From IMG/VR virus record IMGVR_UViG_3300037067_009230, positions 1 to 64,000 of that record: 64,000 nt of DNA. One strand, 5' to 3'. This DNA is from a virus (lineage: Duplodnaviria > Caudoviricetes). The notes beneath the pieces were generated by a model, which was not told where the DNA came from, made no database searches, and saw only the letters and a list, made by a program, of their open reading frames with translations. Shown here in pieces: positions 25,484 through 44,808 of this stretch. The stretch's first letter is position 1; every line of letters starts with the position of its first letter. The position numbers and the translations under genes were made by a program.

Positions 25484-25518
25484 TACACTTTTAAGGCTAA
25501 CAAAATAATCAGGTAATT

Positions 25519-29320: not shown

Positions 29321-29450
29321 AGTTAACGTTAAATGTTTGTGCAGTTGGGGATTATAAACCACTGCACTGTCAAAATAGTACTAACTTAATAAATACAGAT
29401 TATGAGCGAATTAGCACAAGACCCCCAATTGCATAAACATATTGTTGTGC
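29321..29450. mobile_element. attC-like site (array 2)
   Basis: AGTTAAC-G...ATGTTTGTGCAGTTGGGG / CCCCAATTGCATAAACAT...GTTGTGC. Confidence 0.8.
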
Positions 29451-29704
29451 GTAGTTATTTATCATTCTTTGCAGAAAAACACAAGTGCCACATTGATAAA
29501 ATAATGGTTGGAATGGTTGGGGGTGATTTGCATGTATGGAAATACGACGAAGGCGCAGCAAATATTTTTACACAACTCGAAATCATATCCAATTTTGAGA
29601 CTGATGATAGAAAATGGATTTGTCAATTATGTGGCGAATTAGTTAACGGTAGAAATGTAACATTTGAAGAATATCACGAAGGTTGTGGTGGCCTCTGTGT
29701 ATAA
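29402..29704 (+). CDS. Cassette-borne protein with C-terminal Zn-finger-like motif (array 2)
   Basis: Starts inside the attC loop; CQLCG...H.GCGG; cassette ends GTTGTGCGTA / TACGCACAAC are complementary. Confidence 0.75.
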   Translation: MSELAQDPQLHKHIVVRSYLSFFAEKHKCHIDKIMVGMVGGDLHVWKYDEGAANIFTQLEIISNFETDDRKWICQLCGELVNGRNVTFEEYHEGCGGLCV

Positions 29705-29708
29705 TTAC

Positions 29709-29768
29709 GCACAACTAGCTAGTAAACCTACTAAAAGTATGTTTACTATACAAAAATCAGTAAATAAA
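29709..29768. mobile_element. attI-like anchor site, copy 2
   Basis: Two mismatches to copy 1 over 53 bp. Confidence 0.7.
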
Positions 29769-29783
29769 CAAAAAATTAAAGTC

Positions 29784-30337
29784 ATGAAAACAAAATTAAC
29801 AGAAGCACAGAAGCAAGCTAATAAAGAGGCTAAACGAGCTAAAATAAAAGCTGAAAAAAGATTAAAAGAATAGAAGCTGAAAAAACCCAACCAGATGTAA
29901 AGGATATTACAATTACTATTGAATGGAAAAAGTCTCGGACATGGGGCGCAAATCCACACGCAACGGCAGCCGTAAATTTTAAAGATAAAACAGCAGGCGA
30001 ATTTAAAACAGGTTTTTACCGTTCTCCTGAAGGTAATTATACTTGTTCTGGGTGTGGGTACGATAAAGAAAGTACGGTTATTGCTCAGATATTTAATGAC
30101 TTTCTGAAATACAAACTTTGGAGGCTTAGCCCTGAAAAATTAAAAGGTGGAAATGGATCCTTAGATAAAGGTCCGGCTCCATATGGAATTCATTTATATT
30201 CTGAAAATGAACCTTATTATGATGGAGGTATTGGAACAAGTTGCTATTATAATATCTCTGAATACATTGGTGGTAAATTTGAATGCATTGCAAGTGGTAA
30301 AACGTTTGATGTTTATAAATATACTGATAACGAATAA
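29784..30337 (+). pseudogene. Frameshifted hypothetical gene
   Basis: Frame stops at TTA AAA GAA TAG; the -1 frame continues RIEAEKTQPDVKDITITIEWKKS...GCGYDKEST to TAA at 30337. Confidence 0.65.
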
Positions 30338-30417
30338 AGTTTTTGCCTGTTACAAGTCAGGGATTAATACAGAGTATCCCCCAGATAAGGGGGTAATGTA
30401 ACCAAAAATTAAAAGAT

Positions 30418-30723
30418 ATGAAAACAGATAATCAAGTTACGGATGTAATTTTCCGTAAGTTTAAGGATGGAGATATAATAGCCTTATTTCCATATGAAAT
30501 TGATAATTATCATGGTGACTGTCTAAGTTATATGCATATTGGACAACATGGCGGAGCTAATTACTGGCATTGCTTAACAATAACTAAGCCAGCAATGATA
30601 AATGAATATGAGCCATTGATGCGGGAACTTATTTCTATTGGATATGAACTAAGAATAAGACAAAAAATAAATTACAAAGTGTTTTTATCTGCTATGAAAA
30701 TATTTAGAGATAAATATAATTAA
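30418..30723 (+). CDS. Hypothetical phage protein
   Basis: 101 aa; VIFRKF...IIALFP and SYMHIGQHG motifs. Confidence 0.75.
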   Translation: MKTDNQVTDVIFRKFKDGDIIALFPYEIDNYHGDCLSYMHIGQHGGANYWHCLTITKPAMINEYEPLMRELISIGYELRIRQKINYKVFLSAMKIFRDKYN

Positions 30724-30743
30724 CTAACCTAATACTTAACATT

Positions 30744-31127
30744 ATGAACTACAATGATCTAATAAACAAAATTTACCAAAAGACCATCGAAAATCAGTTT
30801 TATGTTGTAAATATTGAAGGTAAGGAACCTGTTACGGGCTATACTGTAAGCACAATTGGCAATGAATTAAGGATTAAATTAAGTGATTTTACACCCGAAA
30901 AAATTGATAAATATATTAAAACAAAGCTACTTAGGTATCCTTATGCCTATTTTGGTACATGGATCTTAGATGATACGGTATATATTGATGTTTTATATTA
31001 TACAGAATGCAAAGCTATTGCCATCGAAGCTGGAAAAATGTTTGGCCAAGTATGTATCTGGGATATCTCTAGTAAACAAGAAATATATTGGCTATCTGAG
31101 GCATTATTTGAATATAGTTTAAATTAA
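30744..31127 (+). CDS. Hypothetical phage protein
   Basis: 127 aa; GTW...VYIDV and Q.CIWD motifs. Confidence 0.75.
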   Translation: MNYNDLINKIYQKTIENQFYVVNIEGKEPVTGYTVSTIGNELRIKLSDFTPEKIDKYIKTKLLRYPYAYFGTWILDDTVYIDVLYYTECKAIAIEAGKMFGQVCIWDISSKQEIYWLSEALFEYSLN

Positions 31128-31170
31128 CCGGACTATGGAGCATGAGGCAGTCCGATTCTGCCTCCGGTTC
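31126..31170 (+). ncRNA. tRNA-like minihelix (acceptor + T arm, no anticodon arm)
   Basis: AACCGGA / 13-nt linker with TATGG / GGCAG-TCCGATT-CTGCC / TCCGGTT. Confidence 0.55.
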
Positions 31171-31205
31171 AAATGTTTTTAGTATTAACCAAAAAATCAA
31201 TCATT

Positions 31206-31304
31206 ATGAAAACTTTACTTATTCTTTTAATCGTATTTGTTGCTATATGCCTTCTAGGTATATTATACAACGGTTACACATGCTTCAAACAACTGTTTAA
31301 ATAA
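31206..31304 (+). CDS. 32-aa membrane peptide
   Basis: MKTLLILLIVFVAICLLGILY; same upstream motif as 28860. Confidence 0.55.
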   Translation: MKTLLILLIVFVAICLLGILYNGYTCFKQLFK

Positions 31305-31380
31305 CAGAGTGTCAAAGAACTACAGTATTTAAATATACTTAAAATTTCAATATGTTTAATTAAAAAAGTTGAAAAAAATT

Positions 31381-31881
31381 ATGAAAAAGTACAAATTGAC
31401 TAATCAGGAATTGCAGACTTACAAGGACTGCCAATGGGAAATCGGCGTATCAAAAACAACATCCGGAGAAGGTAATTTATGTTCCTCCGGATGGTTACAT
31501 TATTATGATAATCCTTTATTAGCCATCTTATTAAATCCTATTCATGCAGATATTAAAAATCCACGACTTTTTGAATGTAAGGCTGAAGGTAAACATCTTA
31601 GTGATAGAGGATTAAAAGGGGGTTGTACAAAAATGACTTTAATTAAAGAAATTACAGTCCCTGAAATTTCCAAAGAACAAAAAATTGCTTTTGGGATTCT
31701 TTGTTCTTTGGAAGTATATAAAGAAACAAAATATAAGAAGTGGGCTGAAAATTGGCTAAATAATACCGACAGGTCAGCAGATGCTGCTTATGCTTATGCT
31801 TATGCTGCTTATGCTGCTTATGCTTATGCTGCTGATGTTATAGATTTAATTAAAATAGCTGAAAAAGCTATGAAATATTAA
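31381..31881 (+). CDS. Hypothetical protein with Ala/Tyr low-complexity repeat
   Basis: ADAAYAYAYAAYAAYAYAAD encoded by GCT/TAT tandem repeats. Confidence 0.75.
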   Translation: MKKYKLTNQELQTYKDCQWEIGVSKTTSGEGNLCSSGWLHYYDNPLLAILLNPIHADIKNPRLFECKAEGKHLSDRGLKGGCTKMTLIKEITVPEISKEQKIAFGILCSLEVYKETKYKKWAENWLNNTDRSADAAYAYAYAAYAAYAYAADVIDLIKIAEKAMKY

Positions 31882-31888
31882 AGTAAAT

Positions 31889-31933
31889 AACCCTGTATGG
31901 TACTCGATCAGGTTCGACTCCTGATCCGGGTTC
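31889..31933 (+). ncRNA. tRNA-like minihelix
   Basis: AACCCTG / TATGGTACTCG linker / ATCAGG-TTCGACT-CCTGAT / CCGGGTT. Confidence 0.55.
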
Positions 31934-31934
31934 A

Positions 31935-32201
31935 ATGAGTAATATTACTCAGTTATTTAAATTTATTGATATGAAAATAGAACATTTTGAATCCAAAGAA
32001 TCTGGCAAAGTTTCTTTAGTATGCCAAGATCCATTATTTAATCAATGGAATAATTTAAAACAATTAATGTCAAAGGCTGTAAGTATTCGTGAGTGGAATA
32101 TTTTACGGGGGCTGGCTAAACTTACCTATCCAATTGAATTAATAAATAGACTGGATGCTTCTGGCTTTATCGTTTCCTTAAATCTTAAAAATGAGAAATA
32201 A
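31935..32201 (+). CDS. Hypothetical protein
   Basis: 88-aa ORF. Confidence 0.65.
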   Translation: MSNITQLFKFIDMKIEHFESKESGKVSLVCQDPLFNQWNNLKQLMSKAVSIREWNILRGLAKLTYPIELINRLDASGFIVSLNLKNEK

Positions 32202-32743
32202 TGGAAAAGGAAACAGTAACAATTGAGATTCTAAATCGAGCTATTGAAGTAGAGCCAGTAACTGCTATACATCCAAAGGGTGTAAAAATATTCATGGAGA
32301 GAATCATAGGTACCACAAAGTATCTTTCAAACAACAGAAAGATCTTATATGATGTATCCTTCATTAGTTTGTATAATTACAATAATAAAATTATTGATGG
32401 GTGTTTTGCGATTGATGGGTTTGTCTATAAAATTGATGCATGGGCTTCCATAGATTTTCCGGATAGATTCTTACAGATACTGGATAAAAATGTACCAGAA
32501 TGTAGGGGTATATGTTTTTATCTTGATAATAAACTCTATGCTGAGAATGTACCATTTCTCAAATGTGATGATATGCAAGACCATCTTCTTACCCAAAGAA
32601 ATGATGGTCTGATGTGGTTCAACAAGTTAAAAATTGTGGACAAATCAGGAAACAAGACAGTATTTTACCCTTCCATCAAAGCAAAGAAACTTCATGATCA
32701 ATTTAAAACGCAAAAAGAAGGATATAGTACCACAGAAGCCTGA
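32201..32743 (+). CDS. Hypothetical protein
   Basis: 180-aa ORF coupled to the upstream gene. Confidence 0.7.
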   Translation: MEKETVTIEILNRAIEVEPVTAIHPKGVKIFMERIIGTTKYLSNNRKILYDVSFISLYNYNNKIIDGCFAIDGFVYKIDAWASIDFPDRFLQILDKNVPECRGICFYLDNKLYAENVPFLKCDDMQDHLLTQRNDGLMWFNKLKIVDKSGNKTVFYPSIKAKKLHDQFKTQKEGYSTTEA

Positions 32744-32858
32744 TATTAAAGTTGCTTATTATGGGTTCCATTGCCCTATTTGTGGAGTTTACGTACCAGC
32801 CGGGACTAATTATTTAAACTTTAATGGGTTTAAAATGTGTATTAAAGAGTCTAATTAA
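32694..32858 (+). CDS. Small Zn-finger-like protein
   Basis: HCPICG motif; overlaps the upstream gene by 50 nt. Confidence 0.4.
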   Translation: MINLKRKKKDIVPQKPDIKVAYYGFHCPICGVYVPAGTNYLNFNGFKMCIKESN

Positions 32859-32922
32859 TTAGCCTCTTATCGAATAAACAGTAAATTGTATGTAAAAACA
32901 TCTATATTAGTAGATAATTATT

Positions 32923-32966
32923 AAACAAAAAGGGGGTAAGATTGATTTCTTACCCCCTTTTTGTTT
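32923..32966. terminator. Bidirectional terminator between convergent modules
   Basis: AAACAAAAAGGGGGTAAGA / TCTTACCCCCTTTTTGTTT perfect inverted repeat. Confidence 0.9.
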
Positions 32967-32972
32967 TAAATT

Positions 32973-33416
32973 TTAAAGAGACTCTTTTAATAAAATCTTT
33001 GATTCTGTTAATATCTGTTTTCTCCGATTCTTTAACTTAATGATTGTAGTATCAATCATAGCCAGTAAAGTATTTCTATCCAGTTCAAAAAATATTGTAA
33101 GTAACCCCGTATTTTGTAACTCATTTGGGATATAAACTCTTTGAAATCCTACTGGTTGAGTAACCTCTGCCTCAGATGTATTATCACCTGTATGAACCAT
33201 CTCCAGAGGTTGCCCACAATTATTAGCCGGGTAAATAGGACTGATAATAGGTCGGGCACCGTTATTAGGAAGGGTTTCCATAATAATGTCACCGTTTACA
33301 ATGTCACAATTTATCATAGTTTTACCAAATAAACCTAATTTGGCTATCCTATAATCAATAAATTTAAGTTCCTCATCCAAGTTCCCAGCCTTATTTAAAA
33401 ATTTTCTCAGTTGCAT
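32973..33416 (-). CDS. Hypothetical protein
   Basis: 147-aa ORF. Confidence 0.7.
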   Translation of the reverse strand: MQLRKFLNKAGNLDEELKFIDYRIAKLGLFGKTMINCDIVNGDIIMETLPNNGARPIISPIYPANNCGQPLEMVHTGDNTSEAEVTQPVGFQRVYIPNELQNTGLLTIFFELDRNTLLAMIDTTIIKLKNRRKQILTESKILLKESL

Positions 33417-33420
33417 AATA

Positions 33421-34425
33421 TTAGTCTTTATATACTGTACCTCTATATATTTTCATGTTACTCATAGCAAAATCTTTTCCAGATGTCTCAATTAACGCAA
33501 ATCCCTGATTCCATTTATTTATAGGATTCCATTCCGGATGAAGTCCACAAAGACACCCAATAGACCACCAGCTCATAAGTTTCTCGTTTATGTCAAGTTC
33601 TGAATGAGCACTGGATCTATGATGATGAGACACCACAGCAGAACTAAGAGTTTTTAAGAATAAACCTCTGGCCGGATTAACTGGAGAAGCTGCCCCACCC
33701 TGTAATTCATGCCCATGAACCCAAGGTAATCTCCCAGTATATATAATCTGATGTTCAATAACATCAACATTTTCAATCCCCCTGATCTTAATTATATTCT
33801 CAAATTTATATTCTTCCATATCAAGTAACTCAGGTGCCTTTACTCTTAAATAATTTTCCCATCGTTCTTCATGATTACCAAGTTTCCAGTAAATCTTTAC
33901 GTCTGGAAAAGTTTTTTGAAGTATATTAAGAAATTCAACCCACATCCATAGTTCATCACTAAAAGATCTATTTCTCATATCCTTATTAAATTTGGATAAT
34001 TGATAACAATCAAGACCATCCCCATTGATCAGTATAAAATTTATCTTTCGATGTCCTATTGTATAATCTATCATTGCATTAATAGCCTCAACATTATGAT
34101 ATGGAAAATGAGAATCTGAAAATACTAATCCATTATTAAACCTTTCTGGTATATGAATAGGATTCCATGTAGTTTCATCTGATTCAGGAATCGCAAATGG
34201 GTTTAAAGATCCAGCCTCTTTAAGATATTTATTAGTACTTAATCTTTTTCTGTCATTATTACCATTTTGCCCTCTATAATACCTAATTATATTCCTAGCG
34301 GATTCTACATTTAAAAATATGGTAGAATTTTCTGTATAAATCTTTTTAGCTAAAGTAAGGGAAGGAACATTTGGAAATCTTTCTAAGTATTCTTTTACTA
34401 CAATACCTGTTATTTTTTTATTCAT
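33421..34425 (-). CDS. Calcineurin-like metallophosphoesterase with N-terminal HTH-like region
   Basis: SDSHFPYH, INGDGLD, GNHE, HGHE, SHHH motifs. Confidence 0.85.
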   Translation of the reverse strand: MNKKITGIVVKEYLERFPNVPSLTLAKKIYTENSTIFLNVESARNIIRYYRGQNGNNDRKRLSTNKYLKEAGSLNPFAIPESDETTWNPIHIPERFNNGLVFSDSHFPYHNVEAINAMIDYTIGHRKINFILINGDGLDCYQLSKFNKDMRNRSFSDELWMWVEFLNILQKTFPDVKIYWKLGNHEERWENYLRVKAPELLDMEEYKFENIIKIRGIENVDVIEHQIIYTGRLPWVHGHELQGGAASPVNPARGLFLKTLSSAVVSHHHRSSAHSELDINEKLMSWWSIGCLCGLHPEWNPINKWNQGFALIETSGKDFAMSNMKIYRGTVYKD

Positions 34426-34464
34426 AACGTTAAGTTTAATAAGTATTTACAAATATACTACTAT

Positions 34465-35811
34465 TTAGTAAACTATGAATAAATTTTTACTAGGCCTTGT
34501 ACAATTTGTATAATAAATTCTATTTCTTTCATACACATTATAATTAGTTTCAATATCCCATTTTAGAACATAAGCATTTTCATAAGTACTACCCTGTGCC
34601 TTATGAGCTGTAATAGCATATGAATATTTTACTTGATGCCATTGTTGGAGAAAATTATAATAGTCTACCCATGCAGATCTGGATTGATACGACCCCTGAG
34701 AATAACTTTTAGCTAAAGCTACTTGTAAAGTGCAGAGTTTATTAAAAGTTGCTTCTGAATCCTCATGTATAATTCGGAGCATATACTCATTATATTTCTC
34801 ATAAGTATATACTCGAACTTGAGTGTTATAATATTTTAAGGTGTATTCATCATTTAAGACTTCTTGCATGACAGTTGCCGATAAAACTTCCATCTCCTCA
34901 TTTGTATTAATTAATGTATGCTTATCTTTTATAACTGGACCATCAGCAATTAATTTATCTCCTTTTATAATTTTTGGAATATCTACTCCAAAAATATATT
35001 CTCGAATTCTTTTATTATAATCATCAATAGTATTGTTTCTCCATCCTATTACTTTTATGTAATCAATAGATCTTTCATAGTTTGGACTTGTAAACATTGG
35101 AAGAATCTTATTGATAAAATATTCTTCTTCTTTGTCCTTTTTTATTGGAAAAACCCCTCCCAGATCATTCTTAACCTCCTGAGGATTCAATATTTGAACC
35201 GGGGCATGTATCCTTGTCCTAATATTAGTGGCATTTTCAATTATAGGATTACCAGCTGCTTGTCTAATAATAGAATTAAGAGAACTTGTTTCAATTCCAT
35301 ATTTTAATCTAACCTCCTTATTAAACGGTAAAGAAGATTCTTGACCTACCGGGGGAATCTGTAAAGGATCTCCAACCAGTATAATTTTCTTCCCATTTTC
35401 AGATAAAGGAATTAAAGTTTCAAATATTATATCATTAATCATTGAAACCTCATCAACTATAATATGGGTATATTCATCTGCTGGAAATCCTAATGAATGA
35501 TCCGGCTTAAATGATAAGGTTCCATCATTATTAATAACTTGTCTCATCCCAAGTGCTGCGTGGATGGTACTAAACGTCACATCACATTTAATCATATCTT
35601 TGAGTACTTTGACAGCCTTATGGGTGGGGGCTGTTACAATTACACGACATTTATTTTTTTTAATATATCGTACAATTTCATCAAGTAAATATGTTTTACC
35701 AGTTCCGGCATATCCTTGTAATAAATATATTCCTCCCCCATCTAATTTTAAGAACATTAAAATAGCTTCATATGCTTTTGGTTGATCTCCGAGTAAGTTT
35801 TTTTCTTCCAT
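34465..35811 (-). CDS. Dda/RecD-like SF1B DNA helicase
   Basis: GYAGTGKT, IIVDEVSM, LVGDPLQIPPV, YAITAHKAQGSTY. Confidence 0.9.
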   Translation of the reverse strand: MEEKNLLGDQPKAYEAILMFLKLDGGGIYLLQGYAGTGKTYLLDEIVRYIKKNKCRVIVTAPTHKAVKVLKDMIKCDVTFSTIHAALGMRQVINNDGTLSFKPDHSLGFPADEYTHIIVDEVSMINDIIFETLIPLSENGKKIILVGDPLQIPPVGQESSLPFNKEVRLKYGIETSSLNSIIRQAAGNPIIENATNIRTRIHAPVQILNPQEVKNDLGGVFPIKKDKEEEYFINKILPMFTSPNYERSIDYIKVIGWRNNTIDDYNKRIREYIFGVDIPKIIKGDKLIADGPVIKDKHTLINTNEEMEVLSATVMQEVLNDEYTLKYYNTQVRVYTYEKYNEYMLRIIHEDSEATFNKLCTLQVALAKSYSQGSYQSRSAWVDYYNFLQQWHQVKYSYAITAHKAQGSTYENAYVLKWDIETNYNVYERNRIYYTNCTRPSKNLFIVY

Positions 35812-35900
35812 TTGCTATAATTGTTAATATCAATCTACATAATAAAGTTAGAGTACAGAAAATTATTATAACTACAATACCTATTGTAATTGAGAAAAAA

Positions 35901-36341
35901 TTAAATATTGCTCTCATGACTAAAATAGGGATTTGCTTGTTTTGATAATCTATCTACAATCCTTTGTCTAGGGTTCGATCTTGGAACCCAATCAAAATGT
36001 ATCGATTTATCTTTCATGTAACTTAACATATTATTAATCTGAGCGTTAAGTTCTATCAGTTTAGGTGCACGCACTCTATATTTACCCTGTAATTGATGAA
36101 TTACTATCTCGGAATCACTAAATATTATAGCACCTGTTATGTTTTTCTTAAGTGTAAGGAGTTTTGACATAGCTGCTTTAATGGCTAAATACTCTGCCTC
36201 GTTATTACTTCCTAGATGTTCACCGGAAATCCTTAAAGTTAAAAAGGGTTTTATGCTTTTTTCATAAAAAAATGCCACACCCATACCCATCCTACCATCT
36301 AGGTAATAACAAGAACCATCACAATGAATGTGTATGATCAT
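35901..36341 (-). CDS. rnhA: Ribonuclease HI-like protein
   Basis: CDGSC, SNNEAEY, SDSEIVIHQL, WVPR..N..VDRLS. Confidence 0.9.
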   Translation of the reverse strand: MIIHIHCDGSCYYLDGRMGMGVAFFYEKSIKPFLTLRISGEHLGSNNEAEYLAIKAAMSKLLTLKKNITGAIIFSDSEIVIHQLQGKYRVRAPKLIELNAQINNMLSYMKDKSIHFDWVPRSNPRQRIVDRLSKQANPYFSHESNI

Positions 36342-37027
36342 AATAACTTCTGTTTTATTACTTGTAAATGGGCAGCTACAAAAAGATCTGCTAGAACATT
36401 AATAGTGATTGGCTGCCTCATTAATTCAGCCTGTTCTTTATTTGTATAGAATCCAGTCTCTGTAAGAATTGCAGGCATTCTAGTCTTAGTAAGAACATAA
36501 AATTTTGCCTCCTTATCTTTATCTCCATCTATCATATCAGCTCGCATTTGCCACCCCATATTAGAAAGATGATTATAAAATATATCAGCTATCGGATCTG
36601 ATTTTGTCTTTCCGGGAGATGTAAATACCTCAATACCGGATGCAGCGTGTGTTTTAAACGCATTAGCATGAATTGAATGATAGTAGCATTTAAATTTATG
36701 ATCTGATAAATATTGCATGGTATTATTAGCCCTTTCAACTCTTAAAGGCACTGTAATGTCATCATCCTCTGATACTATAATAGAATATGGAAGGTCTAGA
36801 TCATTTAATTTAGATGCATATGTCCATGCTAATGCCCTATTAAATACCCCCTCATAAAAAGTAAACTCAGGATATACATACATTTTTGATGGTGCAGTAG
36901 TATATACACAGTCTAATATCCCACCGTGTCCCGGATCTATAAGAGGTACAATTTTTGAATCTCTGCCATAATGATATGATGGTATCTGATTCTTTATATC
37001 ACTGATAATTTTAAGAAGTGCTTTCAT
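36338..37027 (-). CDS. N-acetylmuramoyl-L-alanine amidase (Amidase_3), endolysin
   Basis: IDPGHGG, YEG.FN, SIHANA, PAILTETGF. Confidence 0.9.
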   Translation of the reverse strand: MKALLKIISDIKNQIPSYHYGRDSKIVPLIDPGHGGILDCVYTTAPSKMYVYPEFTFYEGVFNRALAWTYASKLNDLDLPYSIIVSEDDDITVPLRVERANNTMQYLSDHKFKCYYHSIHANAFKTHAASGIEVFTSPGKTKSDPIADIFYNHLSNMGWQMRADMIDGDKDKEAKFYVLTKTRMPAILTETGFYTNKEQAELMRQPITINVLADLFVAAHLQVIKQKLL

Positions 37028-37572
37028 TTATAAATTTGTTTGAATAATTCATAACTGATATCCCTAAAGAATATGTCAGATTTAAATCCAATAATATCCA
37101 GATTCCACCCCATAAACTGTGCTGCTGTGTATCTCATCCATTCAATATGTTCGATTAAAACCATAGGAAAAAAGATATAATATAAATCTTTTGGCATGCC
37201 GTTCTCTCGAACCATCAAAAATGGTTTTTTCTTAGCAGCAACAGCATCATTTTTACACTGGATCATAAACCTGTATATGACAGAGTTAGTCCTAATGAAC
37301 GGTGCGGTCTTTTTTAATCCAAGGTTCTTATAGAACTTAGTCTCCACACTATAAGGGAAATCAAATTCTCTGTCTACATTAATAACATCTCCGCAAATAT
37401 CACCACGTTCTTTCCATCTTAATCCCCCGGACATAGGTACTCTAACAAATTCATGCCCGGTCCATTCCTGTAATAAATGAGTAACATTTAACTCATTTCT
37501 ATTCCCTTTGAGTTTACTATTAATCCTGTTATTTGTAAGTTTAATGTCAAATAAATCTTCGGCTACGTTCAT
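37024..37572 (-). CDS. PD-(D/E)xK Holliday junction resolvase-like nuclease
   Basis: KG.RNE, RVP.SGG, GDVI, SVETK. Confidence 0.75.
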   Translation of the reverse strand: MNVAEDLFDIKLTNNRINSKLKGNRNELNVTHLLQEWTGHEFVRVPMSGGLRWKERGDICGDVINVDREFDFPYSVETKFYKNLGLKKTAPFIRTNSVIYRFMIQCKNDAVAAKKKPFLMVRENGMPKDLYYIFFPMVLIEHIEWMRYTAAQFMGWNLDIIGFKSDIFFRDISYELFKQIYK

Positions 37573-38039
37573 AATACCTTATTTATGAAATAATGTTTCC
37601 AAAGTCTTTCCTGCTCTGTCTTATCACCACTGGTCTTAATCCAGTATAGTAAAGATAGGAAAAAATTATTCTTCCAACCCCCATTTTTATCAAACCATTT
37701 TTTAAACTCCTTTGTCTCATTCTCTTCCTTTACTTTTTTCTTACTATTCTTTTCCATTTCAAGTATTTTACTAACTTGGTCAGAAAAAGCAGCACCCCGA
37801 AGAGTAAATGGTCTATTTTTTGATTTGTTAAACTCTTTACATTCGGCTATCCACATATTACGATACTTAGTAAATAGTGCATCGGCTTCTTCACCTTCAG
37901 TATCCTTTAAATCGGACCGGTAAGTAAAAAATAAATTTATAAGTGTGGTAAGAGTCTCCTGTTTCTTTGCTCTTAATCTTCTAACAAATCTGGGATCTTT
38001 CTCCTTAGTTTCGTTTTGAACAACCTTTTTCTTTTCCAT
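37569..38039 (-). CDS. Hypothetical basic protein
   Basis: 156-aa ORF in an operon. Confidence 0.7.
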   Translation of the reverse strand: MEKKKVVQNETKEKDPRFVRRLRAKKQETLTTLINLFFTYRSDLKDTEGEEADALFTKYRNMWIAECKEFNKSKNRPFTLRGAAFSDQVSKILEMEKNSKKKVKEENETKEFKKWFDKNGGWKNNFFLSLLYWIKTSGDKTEQERLWKHYFINKVL

Positions 38040-39985
38040 TAGTTTAAAATTAAATTGTTATTTTCTTTAGTAAAATTTATTGTATTAGCATATAAGTTAT
38101 CCAGAGTACTGGAATGAGATATTACATAAACACTCTTTCCTTCATCGGCTTTCATCCTAATTAAATCAAATACAGCATTTTCACCATCCTCATCCAAACC
38201 ATCAAAAACTTCATCCATAATTAATAGGTTGATATCTGTATTAATTGAAATGAGATCGTACATCGCAAAAATTAAAACGATATCTAATCTTTGCTTCTCA
38301 CCCCCTGAAAATTCTTTATAGTCTTTATTTAATTTATCCCCTAAAGAGCATATTGTCGTAAAAGGCTTGCTAGATTTCGTTAAATCAATTGCAAATTCAA
38401 TTGATATTCCAAGCCGTTCTCCATATTTGCGTGTATTCTCGTTAAGCTGGGCCAGCATAGCGTTAAAAATAAATGCTTTTATTCCACTGGCACCAAATCC
38501 CTTCTCAGACCACCATTTTATTATTTTAATCTCTTCTTGTAAATCCGTGATATTACTATTAAGTGATTCAGATTTAATCTTCATTAAAGTAATTGCTTTC
38601 CCCTGTGATGCTATATTAAAATCTGGAGCCTTTTCATTCTGTAAAGATTTTAACCTAATCTTTTCATTTTCTAATAGGACTATCTCAAATAGGGTATTTT
38701 CAATGTTATTAAGTTCTTGATATCTGGCAGCAACTACATTGTATCTATCATTTGTGGTAGTAATATCGTTTTTAACTCTTTTAATCCCTTCTGTGACATC
38801 ATCTAAAGCCTGTGTTAATTGAAGTAATTTATTATTTAACTCAAGTATCTGAGTATTTAAATCTTCAATCTCAGCCTCAGCCTCTTTGTTAGCAGTCGAA
38901 TAAATCTTTTCAATATTTGCATGATTAGTTTGATTAATAGCCTGATGACATACAGGGCATAATCCTTTTACAATAGATTCTTTAACAATACCTTTATTTT
39001 CCTCAATCTCTTTCTTAATTTGATTTATTCTAGCAGTAAACTGGTTAATTCTATAATTATTATTATCAATCTCAGACTGAATACGTTTCTGGTCATTATC
39101 AATCTCTACCAAATCCAATCGATACTTATTCTTGGTACTAGTGAGTTCATTATATTCCTGTTCAATCTTATCATGTTCTTCTTTGTCATAATCAAGAGGA
39201 GGAACAACTACTTTTAACTCATTATTATAATTAGTAATAAGAGTTTCAAAACCCTTAATATTTGATTCACAGTCTGAAATCTTATTAGCCTGATTCTGAC
39301 CCCACTCCTCACAAAGACGTTTATCCCGAACAAGGGTAGCCTCTGCCATAGTAATCTGAGAATTAAGGGTATCAGCCTCAGATATGATCTTACTAAGATT
39401 TTGATTCTTCTCAGTAAGATCCAGTTCGGCTTTATGCTTACAGATATTAACCCACTCTACATCAAATAATTGCTCAAACAAGGCTCTCTTATCTTTATTA
39501 TCCTGAGTGATTAATCGGGCCATCCTTTGACCAAACATTACAGAGTTCATAAATGTCTTAGGATCAGTGCCAAGGAGTTTATTAATTCTTTCCTGAGTTT
39601 CATCTTTATTAATTCCTGGGAAAAGTTGTTCATTATTTTTCCAGAGCATGAGTGAATCATTACCCTTTAAACCGTTAGTATCTCCCTTATAATCCAAATG
39701 ACGAGCAATGGAGTAATCTTCTCCATCTACTTCAAAATACGTTATTACTCTGGTTCCTTTCCAATTTGAGGGTCTTATCTCTTCCCATGAAGCGACTTTA
39801 TCCTGATTAGTTTCTTTTAAGTTTGTACCAAATAAACACCATACCACAGATTCAAATAATGTTGTTTTTTTAGTACCATTAACACCTTTAATAAGATTTA
39901 ATCCGGGACGGTCAAGATCAAATATTAATTGATTGACGATACCACGGAAACCATCTATTATTGCTTGTTGAAATTTAATTTTCAT
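38039..39985 (-). CDS. sbcC: SbcC/Rad50-like ATPase
   Basis: GVNGTKKTT Walker A variant, CPVC zinc hook, FSGGE signature, MDEVFDGLD, SH. Confidence 0.9.
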   Translation of the reverse strand: MKIKFQQAIIDGFRGIVNQLIFDLDRPGLNLIKGVNGTKKTTLFESVVWCLFGTNLKETNQDKVASWEEIRPSNWKGTRVITYFEVDGEDYSIARHLDYKGDTNGLKGNDSLMLWKNNEQLFPGINKDETQERINKLLGTDPKTFMNSVMFGQRMARLITQDNKDKRALFEQLFDVEWVNICKHKAELDLTEKNQNLSKIISEADTLNSQITMAEATLVRDKRLCEEWGQNQANKISDCESNIKGFETLITNYNNELKVVVPPLDYDKEEHDKIEQEYNELTSTKNKYRLDLVEIDNDQKRIQSEIDNNNYRINQFTARINQIKKEIEENKGIVKESIVKGLCPVCHQAINQTNHANIEKIYSTANKEAEAEIEDLNTQILELNNKLLQLTQALDDVTEGIKRVKNDITTTNDRYNVVAARYQELNNIENTLFEIVLLENEKIRLKSLQNEKAPDFNIASQGKAITLMKIKSESLNSNITDLQEEIKIIKWWSEKGFGASGIKAFIFNAMLAQLNENTRKYGERLGISIEFAIDLTKSSKPFTTICSLGDKLNKDYKEFSGGEKQRLDIVLIFAMYDLISINTDINLLIMDEVFDGLDEDGENAVFDLIRMKADEGKSVYVISHSSTLDNLYANTINFTKENNNLILN

Positions 39986-40011
39986 TTTATTAATAATTAA
40001 TAAAAAGTGTG

Positions 40012-40071
40012 TTTATTTACTGATTTTTGTATAGTAAACATACTAAAGGTGTGTTTACTAGCTAGTTAGCA
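40012..40071. mobile_element. attI-like anchor site, copy 3
   Basis: Reverse complement of copy 1, with the 5-nt hairpin loop inverted; G|TT core at 40065-40067. Confidence 0.7.
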
Positions 40072-40374
40072 GCCATTTTTAAGGAAGTCTGGTAGCTTCT
40101 CATAACATTCACTTAAAAATAATGGTCTGTCTTTGTAATGCTTTCGTAACTTCAAGAGCATATTTCTTTGATATTCCACCTGTTTAACAAAGTCATTGTA
40201 TTCGGTTTCTGTAAGTTCATTTTGTCCTTCTTTTCTAAAGAATTTATTGTAGAAATAAACAAGTGAATCTTTGCACTTTTGAAGTTCCTCTTGGTCAGCA
40301 GATAATAAACGGCTGCTAACCGCATCTATACCCAATTGGGTAGTTTCTGAGGTATTCAAATTTTTGTGTTCCAT
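40066..40374 (-). CDS. Cassette 1 hypothetical protein
   Basis: Probable start MEHKNL inside the attC loop; reads QLGIDAVSSR through the arm; stop in the CTAAC core. Confidence 0.7.
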   Translation of the reverse strand: MEHKNLNTSETTQLGIDAVSSRLLSADQEELQKCKDSLVYFYNKFFRKEGQNELTETEYNDFVKQVEYQRNMLLKLRKHYKDRPLFLSECYEKLPDFLKNGC

Positions 40375-40448
40375 TGTTACTTTATTTTTTAAGTTGATAA
40401 TTTTGTGTTTCAAATTGCCCAACTGGGCATAGCTGCAACACGTTAGGT
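40314..40448. mobile_element. attC-like site 3.1
   Basis: CTGCTAAC...CTATACCCAATTGGG / CCCAACTGGGCATAG...CGTTAGG. Confidence 0.8.
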
Positions 40449-40474
40449 TTAATAATTACCCCTACGCACCGGGA

Positions 40475-40645
40475 CTAATTACTATCAGGATCGTATGTTT
40501 TATATTTCCATCCTAACCATGCCATTCGTCCAAATTTCTTATCCAGTTCTAAATCAATGTGGGCCATTGACCAATTCTTACTGATTTCAAATTCCTCTGA
40601 TGACCCATTTTCTAATTCTACAATTATTGTTCTCATTTGTCGCAT
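40475..40645 (-). CDS. Cassette 2 protein (56 aa)
   Basis: Hand-translated MRQMRTIIVELENGSSEEFEISKNW...; below the ORF-track cutoff. Confidence 0.6.
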   Translation of the reverse strand: MRQMRTIIVELENGSSEEFEISKNWSMAHIDLELDKKFGRMAWLGWKYKTYDPDSN

Positions 40646-40684
40646 AATTAATTTCGTTATCTGATCTCTTCTGTAATTACTGAA

Positions 40685-40738
40685 ATCTAACTACGTGTAA
40701 AATTCATTGAAACGAAATTTTACACCTGTCCGTTAGCA
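40685..40738. mobile_element. attC-like site 3.2 (short, 54 bp)
   Basis: ATCTAAC-TAC-GTGTAAAATT / AATTTTACAC-CTGTCC-GTTAGCA. Confidence 0.75.
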
Positions 40739-40957
40739 AACATGCCGATAGAGGTACCCACTTTTATGAGCGCGTTCATCAACTTGTTGCATTAGTTCTT
40801 TTGCTGATTCACTTCCGTAAGGTCTGCGATATTTGACTTCTTCTGTGCCGTCTGGCCACTTTTGCACAATTTCAGTAGTTACAAAGGCACGATTTGCTAA
40901 CAATGTATTTACGCCATTGGCGGTTACATTCTCGCTGGATAAGTTATCGGTTTTCAT
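40733..40957 (-). CDS. Cassette 3 protein (74 aa)
   Basis: Start MKTDNL inside the attC loop; stop in the core. Confidence 0.7.
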   Translation of the reverse strand: MKTDNLSSENVTANGVNTLLANRAFVTTEIVQKWPDGTEEVKYRRPYGSESAKELMQQVDERAHKSGYLYRHVC

Positions 40958-41025
40958 ATATTCGTTTTTACGTTTAAAATTTGTACTAATTAATCGCCAA
41001 CAGGCGCAAATACTCACCGTTAGCG
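40895..41025. mobile_element. attC-like site 3.3
   Basis: TGCTAAC...GTATTTACGCCATTGGCG / CGCCAACAGGCGCAAATAC...CGTTAGCG. Confidence 0.8.
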
Positions 41026-41322
41026 GCAATTAAGCGATTTTATGTACTCATTAGCAACATAACTTGCTTTGCATTCATCAAACTCATTAAGTGTTGATTT
41101 GTACCATATCAAAAAATCGCTTAACAGTTCGCTTTGCCCGCTAACATCAGGTATAGTTAATTGCCTTTGCTCCGATTCATACCCGTTCGCTAAGTGCTCA
41201 GAATATTCGGTCATTAACCTAATAACAGTATCATAACTAAATGCTGTTCCTTCTTCTTGTCCGTCTGGGTAACGAACTTTCTGTGTGTACCCTTTTTCAA
41301 ATAAAAATTGATGTGCTTTCAT
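41020..41322 (-). CDS. Cassette 4 protein (100 aa), half encoded inside the attC loop
   Basis: Reads through the arm as QLTIPDVSGQ; stop in the core. Confidence 0.7.
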   Translation of the reverse strand: MKAHQFLFEKGYTQKVRYPDGQEEGTAFSYDTVIRLMTEYSEHLANGYESEQRQLTIPDVSGQSELLSDFLIWYKSTLNEFDECKASYVANEYIKSLNCR

Positions 41323-41418
41323 AATTCGCTCACTATTTAAGTTATTAAAGTTTATTACTCTTATTAAGGTTAGTAGTAATTTGACAGAGGCAACTAACCA
41401 TACCTGTGTTCGTTAGGC
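41139..41418. mobile_element. attC-like site 3.4 (giant, 280 bp)
   Basis: CGCTAAC-AT-CAGGTATAGTTAATTGCC / GGCAACTAACCATACCTG-TGTTC-GTTAGGC with a loop of over 200 nt. Confidence 0.75.
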
Positions 41419-41430
41419 ACAATAAAAAGA

Positions 41431-41640
41431 TTACGGTGTATCTCTGAAATAAGCAGTTGTGATATGATATTTTGCTTGTTCATCTTTTGGTAGTTTATGA
41501 ATTTCGTCCATAATCCTATTATACATCTCCACCTTTTTAATCTTATACTGTTTAAGTTCTTTATACCATTTTATGGCGAATGGTAGTTTAGTTATCCACC
41601 CAATTAAAATGCCTATTGCTAAAATAATACATGTACTCAT
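41431..41640 (-). CDS. Cassette 5 single-TM protein (69 aa)
   Basis: MSTCIILAIGILIGW; cores GTTAGGCACA / TGTGCCTAAC. Confidence 0.7.
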   Translation of the reverse strand: MSTCIILAIGILIGWITKLPFAIKWYKELKQYKIKKVEMYNRIMDEIHKLPKDEQAKYHITTAYFRDTP

Positions 41641-41658
41641 ATTATTAAGATTTACTGT

Positions 41659-41788
41659 GCCTAACACATGCTATAAAAAATAGCGGTTTTAGTAGTTTGC
41701 ACAAGGTTTATACTTCTATTTAATTTCACTGTATTTTGATAAATTTGTTCTTCTATTTCCGCTACTTTTCATAGCATCAACGTTAGGG
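41659..41788. mobile_element. attC-like site 3.5
   Basis: GCCTAAC...GCTATAAAAAATAGCGG / CCGCTACTTTTCATAGC...CGTTAGGG. Confidence 0.85.
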
Positions 41789-41793
41789 TGCAT

Positions 41794-42006
41794 TTAAAAA
41801 TCCTTACACCAACTATCCAACTGAAAGGATAGACTGTCATATACTATTGTTTTATTTGGTAACTTTCGCCAATTCCAATAACCTCGTGGATATTCTTCTG
41901 TTGCAATAAATTTAATTTGCTTTTTGATTAATCCAAACAAAATAGGTTGTTCGCAAGTCAAAATGATGTTACCCTTTTCGTTTGTTTCTTTTTTAATTGC
42001 TTTCAT
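41794..42006 (-). CDS. Cassette 6 protein (70 aa)
   Basis: Start MKAIKKE; cores GTTAGGGTGC / GCACCCTAAC. Confidence 0.7.
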   Translation of the reverse strand: MKAIKKETNEKGNIILTCEQPILFGLIKKQIKFIATEEYPRGYWNWRKLPNKTIVYDSLSFQLDSWCKDF

Positions 42007-42026
42007 AAAAATTGAATAAAAACGCA

Positions 42027-42156
42027 CCCTAACAATGTATATAGCAAATTGGGGGTGTCGTTCCAACTTGTATATTTGTGCTGTTAATTTACTTCTGTGT
42101 GGCTCGATAGGGTAGCACATTTTAATCCCCAACTTGCCATATACTTAACGTTAGTT
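42027..42156. mobile_element. attC-like site 3.6
   Basis: CCCTAAC...GTATATAGCAAATTGGGG / CCCCAACTTGCCATATAC...CGTTAGTT. Confidence 0.85.
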
Positions 42157-42176
42157 GCAAGGCTAAGTCCATGCAT

Positions 42177-43007
42177 TTAATCAACATTTGTGGGTAAATC
42201 CGTAAAAGAAAAAAGCCCACGCTCTTTTGCTTTTTCAAAGCAATTAGGGTTAATGTCACAACCAATAAAACTTCGGTTTAAGTCTTTACAAACTTCTGCT
42301 GTTGTAAAACTACCTGAATAAAAGTCCGCAACTAAATCACCTTCATTGCTACTTGCTTTAATAATTCGTTCAATTAATGATTTTGGTTTTTGGGTATCAT
42401 ACCCAAGTCTTTCAGAGTTAGTCGGCCCTAAATTATTCAATTCCCAAACATCATCAATAGGTGTTGAATCTTGTATTTTATAAACAACATCCCCATTTTC
42501 ATCCCTTTTCATTACCTTTTTGCCATCTTTCACATCTACCTTATTTTTCTTTCTTGGTGTTTCTAACGGTAATCTTAATTCATTAAATATTATTTTGTCG
42601 GTTTTACCATAAAATATAAGTATATCGTGGTTTTTAGCAAACGCCTTTTGTTTTATACTCCATTTATTGTAACTCCAAATAACCTCATTCACAAAATTAT
42701 CATACCCAAATATATCATCCATAATACACCGCATCCAATGGTTTATTTTTGTGTCCATTTGTAGGTAAATGCTTCCTGTTGGTTTTAATATCCTGTGCAT
42801 TTCTTTTATTCGTGGTATGTAGTGGCTTTCAATTTCGCTTCGTATTGGCTTTATATCTTGATAGTCTGCAAATCTTCTACCAGTACCATAGAGTATATCA
42901 CAATAAATTAAATCAATCGTGTTGTCTTTAATTTCTGCCATCAATTCTAAATTGTCGCAAATTCTAAGGTCTAAAAACCCCTCCCCATTTTTTTCTTTTA
43001 CTCTCAT
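42177..43007 (-). CDS. Cassette 7: beta-class N6-adenine/N4-cytosine DNA methyltransferase
   Basis: DNLELM, CDILYG (motif IV variant), TQKP..LIERII..SS.EGDLV.DFYSGS.TT (motif I), IGCD. Confidence 0.85.
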   Translation of the reverse strand: MRVKEKNGEGFLDLRICDNLELMAEIKDNTIDLIYCDILYGTGRRFADYQDIKPIRSEIESHYIPRIKEMHRILKPTGSIYLQMDTKINHWMRCIMDDIFGYDNFVNEVIWSYNKWSIKQKAFAKNHDILIFYGKTDKIIFNELRLPLETPRKKNKVDVKDGKKVMKRDENGDVVYKIQDSTPIDDVWELNNLGPTNSERLGYDTQKPKSLIERIIKASSNEGDLVADFYSGSFTTAEVCKDLNRSFIGCDINPNCFEKAKERGLFSFTDLPTNVD

Positions 43008-43048
43008 TCGTTCATTTAATTAAGTTTCTACTAATTTTACCGCCCAGC

Positions 43049-43176
43049 ATATAACAATGTATATAATTTATAGGCAGTTATGTTAATAATTCAATCTTTA
43101 TTTCTCGTTTAAAGTATGTAGGTAACTCAAAATTCGTAGCTCGAAATGCCTACAAATCATATACAAACCGTTAGCA
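43049..43176. mobile_element. attC-like site 3.7
   Basis: ATATAAC...GTATATAATTTATAGGCA / TGCCTACAAATCATATAC...CGTTAGCA. Confidence 0.85.
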
Positions 43177-43177
43177 C

Positions 43178-43378
43178 CTATTTTAAAATGAATGACTGAC
43201 AATCATCACATATAAAACTATGAGCATAAACAGATTTTAATTCGCACCATGAGCAATGACCATATGTGGCACCCGTATAGTATTTACAGTTCCCGTATTT
43301 ATAAAAAACAGGTGCTAACACAGGCTCAACTGCAATAGCTGGAGAAGTATGTTGCGTAGGTCTTACTCTTTTTGCCAT
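43178..43378 (-). CDS. Cassette 8 small Cys-rich protein
   Basis: Probable start MAKRVRP (or 43417) inside the attC loop; CKY..., CSWC, CDDC; cores GTTAGCACCT / AGGTGCTAAC. Confidence 0.65.
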   Translation of the reverse strand: MAKRVRPTQHTSPAIAVEPVLAPVFYKYGNCKYYTGATYGHCSWCELKSVYAHSFICDDCQSFILK

Positions 43379-43444
43379 GTTCGTTGTATTTTGATAATTA
43401 AGTATTTCAAATTCCACTACATGCGGTTAGCATCAACGTTAGAC
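43313..43444. mobile_element. attC-like site 3.8
   Basis: TGCTAAC...GCTCAACTGCAATAGCTGG / CCACTACATGCGGTTAGC...CGTTAGAC; more degenerate stem. Confidence 0.7.
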
Positions 43445-43831
43445 ACCTATTTCAAAAGAATAATCACTCCCATTGATAGTTTCTTTTTCATAATAATTAC
43501 ATAGTTCACCAAGGGAATAGAAAACAGGTATATTATGTTTCTTTGCAAGTGCTACCTCATCATCTGCGCCAACGCTCTCACCAGATAAACGCAGTACACA
43601 ATCACAAACTAGTAGCCATATATTATCTATAGTAATCCAATCATTGTCGGGTCTTGGCTGTACTACATTTTGAAAATGATTTAAAAGTGGTACAAAAGGC
43701 ACAAAATTTAAATTCATGAGAATATGTGCAGTATCTATCTGCCTATTTACATTTGAGATTTTATTACCCAGTGTATAAGGACTTGCGATATAAACCTTAA
43801 TTGAATCTTTAGTCATATTTGGGAAAGTCAT
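43439..43831 (-). CDS. Nucleoside 2-deoxyribosyltransferase-like (DUF4406-like) protein
   Basis: KVYIASPYT, CDCVLRL.GES.GAD.E. Confidence 0.75.
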   Translation of the reverse strand: MTFPNMTKDSIKVYIASPYTLGNKISNVNRQIDTAHILMNLNFVPFVPLLNHFQNVVQPRPDNDWITIDNIWLLVCDCVLRLSGESVGADDEVALAKKHNIPVFYSLGELCNYYEKETINGSDYSFEIGV

Positions 43832-44808
43832 TTTATTAAAATTAATCCATAGTTTAAAACCTTCTCATCTAATTTAGTGACTTCTGCATAGTTTTTTATA
43901 ATAGTCTCCGGTGCAAGGTCTGTTCTGAAATTATTTAACATTTCCTGCTGCTTAGTGGTTTTTGTATTAATGACAGGAGACCATACCACATATTGCTGTT
44001 GTTCCCACTCAGTTAACTCAGATCCCTCTTCTTTTCTAATGAACTGGGGAAATTTATCTGTGATGTCCTTAAATGATATAGTATTAGGATCATCTAAGTC
44101 TAATATCCAGAATCCCTTCCGTTTTCCAAGATCTCCGAGATCCCTATGCATAGGACTTCCGACATTAATAAACTTATCAGTTATCTCTCCACCATCATGG
44201 ACATGACCATTAAACACCATATCAAAATTATCAAATAATGAATCATCTGGTTGAATATGATCTTTCTCTGGAAAGCCAGAAGCTACCATCTGGTGCATGA
44301 GAAGATAACTTTTACCTGTAGTATATGTTTGTTTCACTTTATCCTGTAAACCACCAAGAACCTTTTTAAAATGCTCCGGATATTCAAAATATGAAATACC
44401 AAATATATGATTATTGTTATCGGTAGATAGCCGACTCATATCATTTAATAGAATGAAATTATCAAACAAAATAGCCAAATGTTGAAGGGCACTGGTAGCC
44501 GGTTGGTCTATGAGATTTTTACTTGCTTGATCATGATTACCAGAAATAGCTATAATCTTGATTAATGGATATTTCTTAAAGTTATTCTTGAAGCAGGCAA
44601 TAATAGCATCCTCAGCTTCAGTGGACATAATCTGCATCAAGTTATAAAGATCCCCCGGCAATAAGATATATTTTATTTCATTTACACTTGCAAAATTAAA
44701 CAGGTAATCAAGATATGCAATTCCATTATTTAACCTGCGGTTATCCTGATTGAATTTCTGATATTTATGCACGTGGATATCTGACGTAACAATAGCTAAT
44801 TCACTCAT
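43828..44808 (-). CDS. sbcD: SbcD/Mre11-like nuclease
   Basis: SDIHVH, PGDLY, GNHD, MHQ, NGHVH. Confidence 0.9.
   Translation of the reverse strand: MSELAIVTSDIHVHKYQKFNQDNRRLNNGIAYLDYLFNFASVNEIKYILLPGDLYNLMQIMSTEAEDAIIACFKNNFKKYPLIKIIAISGNHDQASKNLIDQPATSALQHLAILFDNFILLNDMSRLSTDNNNHIFGISYFEYPEHFKKVLGGLQDKVKQTYTTGKSYLLMHQMVASGFPEKDHIQPDDSLFDNFDMVFNGHVHDGGEITDKFINVGSPMHRDLGDLGKRKGFWILDLDDPNTISFKDITDKFPQFIRKEEGSELTEWEQQQYVVWSPVINTKTTKQQEMLNNFRTDLAPETIIKNYAEVTKLDEKVLNYGLILIK

Follow-up and report, generated by a model that had tools for sequence, protein, structure and literature searches.

Two conserved G-T pairs in attC-like hairpins between the small genes of a phage: a probable integron-like cassette system linked to Xer-like recombinases

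Integrons provide the classic example of recombination at folded single-stranded DNA (ssDNA), for which an integrase, IntI, with a special insertion and bulged bases in its sites are regarded as necessary. In T4-type phages, PeSL (promoter/stem-loop) cassettes were reportedly described by Arbiol, Comeau and Krisch in 2010, and homologous recombination between longer repeats is said to account for their shuffling. In over half of Bacteroidales, rAID-1 clusters were found in which a XerD-family recombinase accompanies arrays of small genes with repeats that are 'reminiscent of integrons' (Ross et al., 2019; 10.1101/471110). Clusters of attC sites lacking integrases (CALINs) were found in 17 phages (Qi et al., 2023; PMC9892861). 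Here we analyzed the imperfect hairpins that separate small genes in a tailed phage, using the first 64 kb (the window) of the 76,155-bp virus record IMGVR_UViG_3300037067_009230, which has an estimated completeness of 92%. It is probable, in our view, that these hairpins are attC-type folded-ssDNA sites of an integron-like cassette system of Bacteroidota and their phages, whose enzyme would be a small Xer-like tyrosine recombinase and not a classical IntI. All the evidence for recombination that is brought here is comparative.

The hairpins stand in three arrays with about eleven single-gene cassettes. The main array consists of eight small minus-strand genes at 40.0-43.45 kb, with Mre11-like and DUF7768 genes on one side and an SbcC-like gene on the other, and two smaller plus-strand arrays are found at 24.7-25.5 kb and 29.3-29.8 kb. 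Seven stems were located: E7 on the plus strand (29321-29450) and, on the minus strand, E1 (40314-40448), E2 (40895-41025), E3 (41139-41417), E4 (41659-41788), E5 (42027-42156) and E6 (43049-43176). On the strand that is sense for the genes they follow the pattern YTAACG-N7-9-T(A/T)TG-N4-GT(T/A)G ... C(A/T)AT-N4-TA(T/A)A-N4-6-GTTAG, with a loop of ~85 nt in full elements and of ~220 nt in one. All elements of the window begin with YTAAC and end with GTTAG, apart from one that ends with GTTAT.

An initial annotation of this DNA, made from the letters only, had drawn attention to two G-T wobble pairs per stem, and they are present in all seven. The G is on the 5' arm and the T on the 3' arm, with 14 of 14 on the sense strand, for which the chance is ~6e-5 if the mismatches were strand-neutral transitions. 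The spacing is G-N4-G in six stems and G-N5-G in E2, which carries one bulged T; the first wobble G lies at +12 from AAC in five stems (E2, E4, E5, E6 and E7), at +13 in E3 and at +14 in E1. Ten sites read AAC-G on the sense strand, eight of them on the minus strand (43437, 43169, 42149, 41781, 41411, 41018, 40731 and 40441) and two on the plus strand (29323 and 25047). The stems of the window show no conserved bulge; besides the bulged T of E2 there is one extra mismatch in E1. When folded with DNA parameters, the sense strand of six full elements is more stable than its complement by 1.6-5.5 kcal/mol. With a covariance model the sense strand of the window scores 79-111 bits, as against no more than 25 bits for the opposite strand, and a model made from viral and bacterial members finds eight window sites at E <0.001.

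The family to which these hairpins belong is large. A seed pattern was made from the conserved letters, with an allowed length of 109-139, and was searched in IMG/VR and in one-genome-per-species bacterial contigs, which gave at least 119 viral and at least 120 bacterial loci. Among the matches listed, the bacterial loci are almost all from Bacteroidota, with a few from Ignavibacteria, Chlorobiota and Calditrichia, and element lengths have a sharp maximum at 124-126 nt. For 106 aligned phage and bacterial members RNAalifold gives a consensus of 18 pairs, and compensatory changes are seen in 17 of these; the covariation score of 0.54 compares with 0.12 for shuffles, none of 500 shuffles reaching 0.54, and 91% of the cells are paired as compared with 69% in shuffles. 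The pairing signal collapses when partners are shifted by one to three columns. In addition to these 18 consensus pairs there is core pairing, and the folds show an outer (R) pairing and an inner (L) stem, with an unpaired spacer between them and a variable loop at the tip; AAC and GTT are invariant in the 106 members.

The two wobble columns are G-U in 98 and 105 of the 106 aligned members, while G-U is nearly absent elsewhere in the alignment; a lack of such conservation had been named in the initial annotation as what would speak against its proposal. No conserved bulge column was found in the stems of these members, and two G-T pairs at fixed positions are found instead. Since the seed pattern fixed part of the wobbles, the loci were rescanned with a filter that demanded AACG and GTT, as well as pairing at no fewer than 14 of the other 15 stem positions. 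This gave 89 elements that do not match the seed pattern, in which the two positions are G-T in 61 and 64 cases, the remainder being mostly A-T or G-C, and the reverse T-G was seen in none. The strand asymmetry also holds in the family. The CTAACG strand, which bears the G of both wobbles, folds better as DNA in 52 of 56 viral and 54 of 60 bacterial members (106 of 116 in all).

Sequence comparison equates the CTAACG strand with the bottom strand of a classical attC. The bottom strand of attCaadA7 begins with xTAAC and ends with GTTAx. The bottom strands of attC sites printed in PMC9892861 have the same beginning and end. The orientation of the neighboring genes, as called from open reading frames, differs between phages and bacteria with regard to this strand. 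Among viral contigs, sense genes flank 47 elements on both sides and antisense genes flank one on both sides, whereas in bacterial genomes the corresponding numbers are 5 and 35. The isolated, virulent Polaribacter phage P12002L has the phage polarity. The reversed cassette polarity that was first read from this one phage is also that of the other phage contigs, in which the folding strand is the gene-sense strand, and it is opposite in bacteria. As for cassettes common to both, the sampled viral and bacterial loci gave only 25 short matches, mostly to small contigs of metagenome-assembled genomes, with no clear transfer from phage to host.

The edges of homology between contigs indicate where the exchange may take place. 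E5, E4 and E1 are 93-95% identical to elements elsewhere (95% for E5 and an element of viral contig L012, 93% for E4 and one of L058, 93% for E1 and one of L072), the flanking genes are unrelated even at the protein level, and the homology begins at CTAACG. Most inter-contig matches among viral loci, 321 of 442, are element-sized. On the 5' side, the homology stops no more than 1 nt from CTAAC in 107 of ~217 cases, and in six it continues far upstream. On the 3' side it frequently carries on into the following gene, by at least 100 nt in 32 cases. Six of nine long shared units end between the TAA and the C of the next core, beyond which the contigs diverge into different elements; examples of long shared units are L062/L020, with 96% identity over 670 nt, and L072/L017. 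This one-sided 5' edge, together with the end at the next TAAC, indicates a mobile unit that consists of CG, the hairpin and the downstream gene, up to the next CTAA. It agrees with the earlier proposal that each cassette is a hairpin plus its downstream gene. Natural breakpoints fall between AA and C of the sense strand, and the crossover predicted at the sense-strand AAC finds comparative support, as homology starts at CTAAC and often ends between CTAA and C of the next site. Judged from these edges, the exchange point is in the AAC of the folding strand, as is the classical integron crossover.

A recombinase is linked to the family in its other members. Five element-bearing genomes were examined for the position of their best match to the integron-integrase model, and in all five this tyrosine recombinase lies within 20 kb of the elements, whose CTAACG strand is directed at it. 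In Zobellia and Winogradskyella, co-oriented genes adjoining the recombinase stand in rows, with elements between them. A homologue is also found in 13 of 120 bacterial 8-kb loci that were fetched around single elements. In every locus that allowed the placing of both, 4 of 4 viral and 11 of 11 bacterial, the CTAACG strand runs towards the end with the recombinase. The linked proteins match the XerA-type model end to end with 200-225 bits, and they match XerA structures over the whole length as well. Against the IntI model TIGR02249 they reach 188-212 bits (cut-off 265), in two pieces and with a linker ~40 aa shorter than in the model, and their closest solved structures are archaeal XerA proteins and not VchIntIA. 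One phage-borne recombinase (L083:6918-7712, 264 residues) has the same Xer-like profile. As far as sequence can tell, the system is therefore an integron-like platform whose recombinase lacks the feature that defines IntI. The initial annotation had supposed that a different recombinase reads the ssDNA hairpins by means of the wobbles; the enzyme of the relatives is indeed Xer-like and without the IntI insertion, while the wobbles are conserved and go with a difference in folding between the strands, and might be read by it.

Based on these data, a possible mechanism can be described. The CTAACG strand, when single-stranded, would fold by pairing of the outer CTAAC with GTTAG, followed by an asymmetric unpaired spacer and an inner stem that starts with TATG/TATA, and the folded outer and inner stems would mimic a two-arm recombinase core site. 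The Xer-like recombinase would then cross over between the A and the C of AAC on the folding strand, and a cassette would begin with the CG behind one CTAA, include the hairpin and the gene that follows, and run to the next CTAA. The G-T pairs at +12 and +17 from AAC, five bp apart, would keep the CTAACG strand paired and would become two A-C mismatches in the complementary fold. Due to these mismatches only one strand would form the site, which would give a single direction of insertion. The positional invariance of the G-T pairs and their conserved neighbors (TA-T-G and A-G-T) suggest that the protein may also contact them. In phages, with their flipped genes, the hairpin precedes the gene and often supplies its leader, start codon and first ~20 codons, CTAAC often supplies the stop codon of the preceding gene, and such an orientation would let the phage operon read through the arrays towards the recombinase end. 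A phage lacking a recombinase would have to rely for exchange on the enzyme of its host or of another phage that infects the same cell. A broader and more tentative proposal, which we regard as possible without favoring it, is that Bacteroidota phages keep their own pool of backward cassettes, traded by an Xer-like system that is shared with their hosts, and that the two G-T wobbles replace extrahelical bases in the choice of strand. If true, strand choice at folded ssDNA sites would have been solved a second time and independently, and the inverted orientation of the genes would hold the cassette pools of phage and host functionally apart under the same enzyme.

Several observations weigh against a recombination system of this kind, or at least against its activity here. 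No tyrosine or serine recombinase was found in the 76,155-bp, 92%-complete record of this phage, and a recombinase of the linked type was not found in 9 of 10 other large viral records with the element; phage arrays could be inactive relics. Near-identical elements lie beside genes that are unrelated on both sides, which a simple one-crossover model does not predict, though it agrees with the uniform sites of sedentary arrays. A clean excision joint was not found in public runs, which were searched as Logan contigs that are short and break at repeats; the joints listed have sides of 20-33 nt at 88% likeness and may stem from other genomes. The only member that was tested at the bench, the compact P12002L_attC1, did not recombine with IntI1 in E. 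coli (PMC9892861), which agrees with a different enzyme but is equally expected of something that is not a site. In phages, moreover, the strand with the wobbles is also the mRNA, and an additional role at the RNA level is possible. Finally, the seed pattern biased the collection towards TATG/TATA, a concern that the rescan and the covariance model lessen.

One alternative is that the hairpins are RNA elements of phage mRNA, acting in processing, stability or translation, and that the G-U pairs reflect nothing but selection for RNA structure. G-U is a normal pair in RNA, the wobbles are on the transcribed strand in the phage, and the loops of five elements hold start codons and A-rich leaders. 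We consider this explanation quite improbable. Bacterial arrays keep the same two wobbles on the strand that is not mRNA (35 to 5), and thus selection on mRNA structure cannot be their general cause, which answers the objection that was foreseen in the initial annotation. RNA function also does not predict breakpoints between CTAA and C or the linkage to a recombinase, and a search of Rfam 15 covariance models over 39000-44500, with E up to 5, gave no relevant family match. It may also be asked whether the hairpins are intergenic regulatory modules similar to PeSL, with genes shuffled by homologous or illegitimate recombination and with no dedicated recombinase. The elements are better conserved than the genes on both sides of them, the arrays lie in a variable region of the genome, and most phage records have no recombinase, as such modules would have it. 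This remains unlikely, since the identity between different elements at the breakpoints is limited to 5-6 nt, not enough for homologous exchange, and since the breakpoints lie very predominantly on one side, that of the 5' core. The presence of a recombinase at a fixed end of 15 of 15 loci points in the same direction, and recombination by double-stranded homology does not need strand-specific wobbles.

Another option is that these are ordinary attC sites of a classical IntI of the host, so that the phage array would be a standard CALIN. AAC and GTT cores, the unpaired spacer, the inner stem and the variable loop would all suit such sites, and a compact member in phage P12002L was predicted as attC by HattCI (PMC9892861). 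However, the conserved extrahelical bases are absent, the linked recombinase has no IntI insertion and the gene polarity is reversed. Surveys with IntegronFinder report almost no integrons in Bacteroidetes (PMC9024848), and P12002L_attC1 was the sole failure with IntI1 among six phage sites (PMC9892861). Classical attC sites are thus a very improbable explanation, and sites of a Xer-like recombinase are preferred. Four other candidates were rejected: miniature inverted-repeat transposable elements, as the copies are alike in structure and not in sequence; invertible promoters, as the consistent asymmetry of the arms would not survive inversion; hairpin promoters of the N4 phage type, as the stems are far too long; and intrinsic terminators, as a T run is absent.

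Looking at the elements of the main array one by one, all on the minus strand, E8 (43313-43444; 46.1 bits with the covariance model) is degenerate; the DUF7768 gene has its stop codon within the CTAAC of E8, and a 66-aa gene starts at an ATG in its loop (43378). E6 (85.2 bits), with two G-T wobbles and a degenerate 3' core (GTTATA), is upstream of a cassette gene for an orphan N6/N4 DNA methyltransferase (42177-43007; Pfam PF01555, 1e-45; PHROG 67). E5 (102.7 bits) and E4 (111 bits) follow, and the cassette genes in this part encode a 70-aa protein that matches no known family (41794-42006) and a 69-aa protein with a hydrophobic N-terminus (41431-41640). E3 has the two usual wobbles and is the element with the ~220-nt loop, which encodes the first half of a 100-aa gene (41020-41322). 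The loop of E2 (79 bits) contains the ATG (40957) of a 74-aa gene (40733-40957), and that of E1 (85.3 bits) the ATG (40374) of a 102-aa gene (40066-40374). Between the last two lies E0 (40685-40738; 28.6 bits), a compact 54-nt member with a perfect 10-bp stem, no wobble and the loop TTCGTTTCAATGA, upstream of a 56-aa gene (40475-40645); it is of the same subtype as the published P12002L_attC1.

On the plus strand, E7 scores 81.9 bits although it was outside the training set of the covariance model; its 3' arm is at 29421-29448 and its loop contains the ATG (29402) of a 100-aa gene (29402-29704). The array at 24.7-25.5 kb holds a short variant of ~94 nt (25045-25138) that begins with CCTAACG and has the first wobble only, a marginal match (17.9 bits, E 0.15), and a 3' half-site of an E1-type element (24746-24797) that is 87% identical to the 3' arm of E1 and lies within the start of a gene (24718-25038). 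In all, the stop codon of the upstream gene lies within CTAAC in five cases and the start codon of the downstream gene lies within the loop of five elements, in which the 3' arm and GTTAG are therefore coding, in differing frames.

Some further features of the elements were observed. Compact hairpins of ~55 nt, in the window (40685-40738) and in L260 (3875-3931 and 4775-4838) and L083 (~6848-6880), share the loop TCGTTT(T/C)AATG and have no wobbles, and in L083 such a hairpin is the last site ahead of the recombinase gene; they may be a distinct subtype with a role of its own. The loops of 125-nt elements (for example L021:1545-1674) resemble two tandem units of ~35 nt, GATTACGAG..AACTTTCAAATTA followed by GATTGAACGAG..AACTTCAAATTAC. 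This tandem unit is conserved in phage and bacterial members and may be a protein-binding or accessory site. In public runs from groundwater, landfill, wastewater and lakes, belonging to four studies, contigs at least 88% like E5 (42008-42131) are far more abundant than the flanking phage genes, and a landfill run from another study holds a near-identical copy of parts of the phage. The depth over element bins is far above that over genes; it is summed over organisms and not used as evidence, and gives only a hint that the E5-type element is widely spread.

Each of the three arrays ends in a repeat of 56-67 bp that starts at the last CTAAC: anchor A (25426-25492, plus strand), anchor B (29713-29770, plus strand) and anchor C (40003-40069, minus strand), the last followed by the SbcC-like gene. 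The three copies are 90% identical. Each contains a hairpin with a 9-bp stem (TAGTAAACA ... TGTTTACTA) and TACAAAAATCAGTAAATAAA, and the next gene starts within ~20-30 nt. The repeat is located at the array end where relatives carry the recombinase; in a classical integron the integrase end bears the attI site and the Pc promoter. No match to the repeat was found in the fetched loci, nor an exact-pattern match in IMG/VR, and it does not align with the regions upstream of the recombinase in L083, L088 and L025. The earlier suggestion that the genes are transcribed towards an attI-like site holds in part: that end holds the recombinase in relatives, while the repeat, for which no relatives were found, has no support as an attI.

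The backbone genes on the two sides of the main array, both on the minus strand, encode a Mre11/SbcD-like phosphoesterase upstream (43828-44808; Pfam PF00149) and a SbcC/Rad50-like ATPase downstream (38039-39985; Pfam PF13476, PF02463 and PF13558). No relatives were found when the SbcC-like protein was used as the sole query against viral contigs. The G+C content of the phage is ~33%, and its gene products also include a family-A DNA polymerase, helicases and a tail fibre that bears an S74 chaperone domain. The phage is most likely of the lytic type. Its host is most likely Flavobacteriia-like, as suggested by the methylase gene, which is 70-78% identical at the nucleotide level to methylase genes of Cellulophaga, Flavobacterium and Polaribacter phages. 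Near both ends of the record there is an exact 125-bp direct repeat (5-129 and 76012-76136), and the record is classed in IMG/VR as linear without end repeats; the repeat suggests an assembly overlap of a circular or terminally redundant genome, i.e. a complete genome of ~76.0 kb. Nine head-to-tail copies of a TATAC-rich 11-bp unit (19582-19719) sit between a leftward gene block that ends at 19549 and a rightward one that starts at 19941, where the GC skew flips its sign; they could mark an origin or a region of regulatory iterons. Within a 170-aa open reading frame (31369-31881), ATGCTGCTT/ATGCTT units form a short tandem repeat (31781-31837).

If the hairpins are indeed sites of a Xer-like recombinase, the definition of an integron would be widened, and a simple, testable rule for strand choice would reside in two base pairs. 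It would also explain why standard tools miss such arrays. Lytic phages would then carry exchangeable cassettes, including an anti-restriction methylase, that read backwards relative to host arrays, which bears on the question of how phages and hosts share or separate their accessory genes.

Comparing the locus with the described systems, PeSL cassettes have the same conserved intergenic stem-loops flanking small accessory genes in variable phage regions, whereas here a core of 5 nt marks the breakpoints and a site-specific recombinase accompanies the family. The rAID-1 clusters are alike by description, with a XerD-family recombinase, an array of small genes and intergenic repeats that may or may not belong to the present family. 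The rAID-1 paper does not define its repeats as folded ssDNA sites and describes no wobbles, crossover point or phages (10.1101/471110). Of the components of a Xer-like cassette array of this type, the window has the repeated intergenic sites between single genes, and the Xer recombinase at the array end is absent from the phage. Phage CALINs are similar in their integrase-less attC-like sites in lytic phages and in their cargo of orphan DNA methylases (PMC9892861), and P12002L_attC1 from that study is a compact member of the present hairpin family. A CALIN comprises at least two attC sites that lie within a few kb of each other, on a replicon lacking an integrase; with our own covariance model, eight sites are found in 3.4 kb of this phage, which has no recombinase. 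Qi et al. treated their sites as classical attC and found few of them, and the size of the family, the wobbles, the Xer-like enzyme and the systematic reversal of polarity were not described (PMC9892861). In the literature that we searched, no description was found of wobble pairs or a crossover for this hairpin family, or of the reversal between phage and host.

The likeness is most extensive with integron attC sites and sedentary chromosomal integrons, such as the Vibrio VCR arrays of ~125 nt, which have the same imperfect hairpin with inverse AAC and GTT cores (RYYYAAC and GTTRRRY in classical attC sites), spacer, inner stem and variable loop. In integrons, likewise, one strand folds better, the bottom strand, which there is also the one recombined; the crossover is between AA and C of that strand, and arrays of single-gene cassettes adjoin a tyrosine recombinase, with near-uniform sites beside unrelated genes. 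The hairpins described here differ from integron attC sites in having two invariant G-T pairs and no extrahelical bases, and the recombinase of their relatives is XerA-like, without the IntI-specific insertion (I2 region). A phage cassette gene is carried by the folding strand and begins within the hairpin or directly behind it, whereas in integrons the gene lies on the non-folding (top) strand, ahead of its site, and in the bacterial relatives it is likewise antisense.

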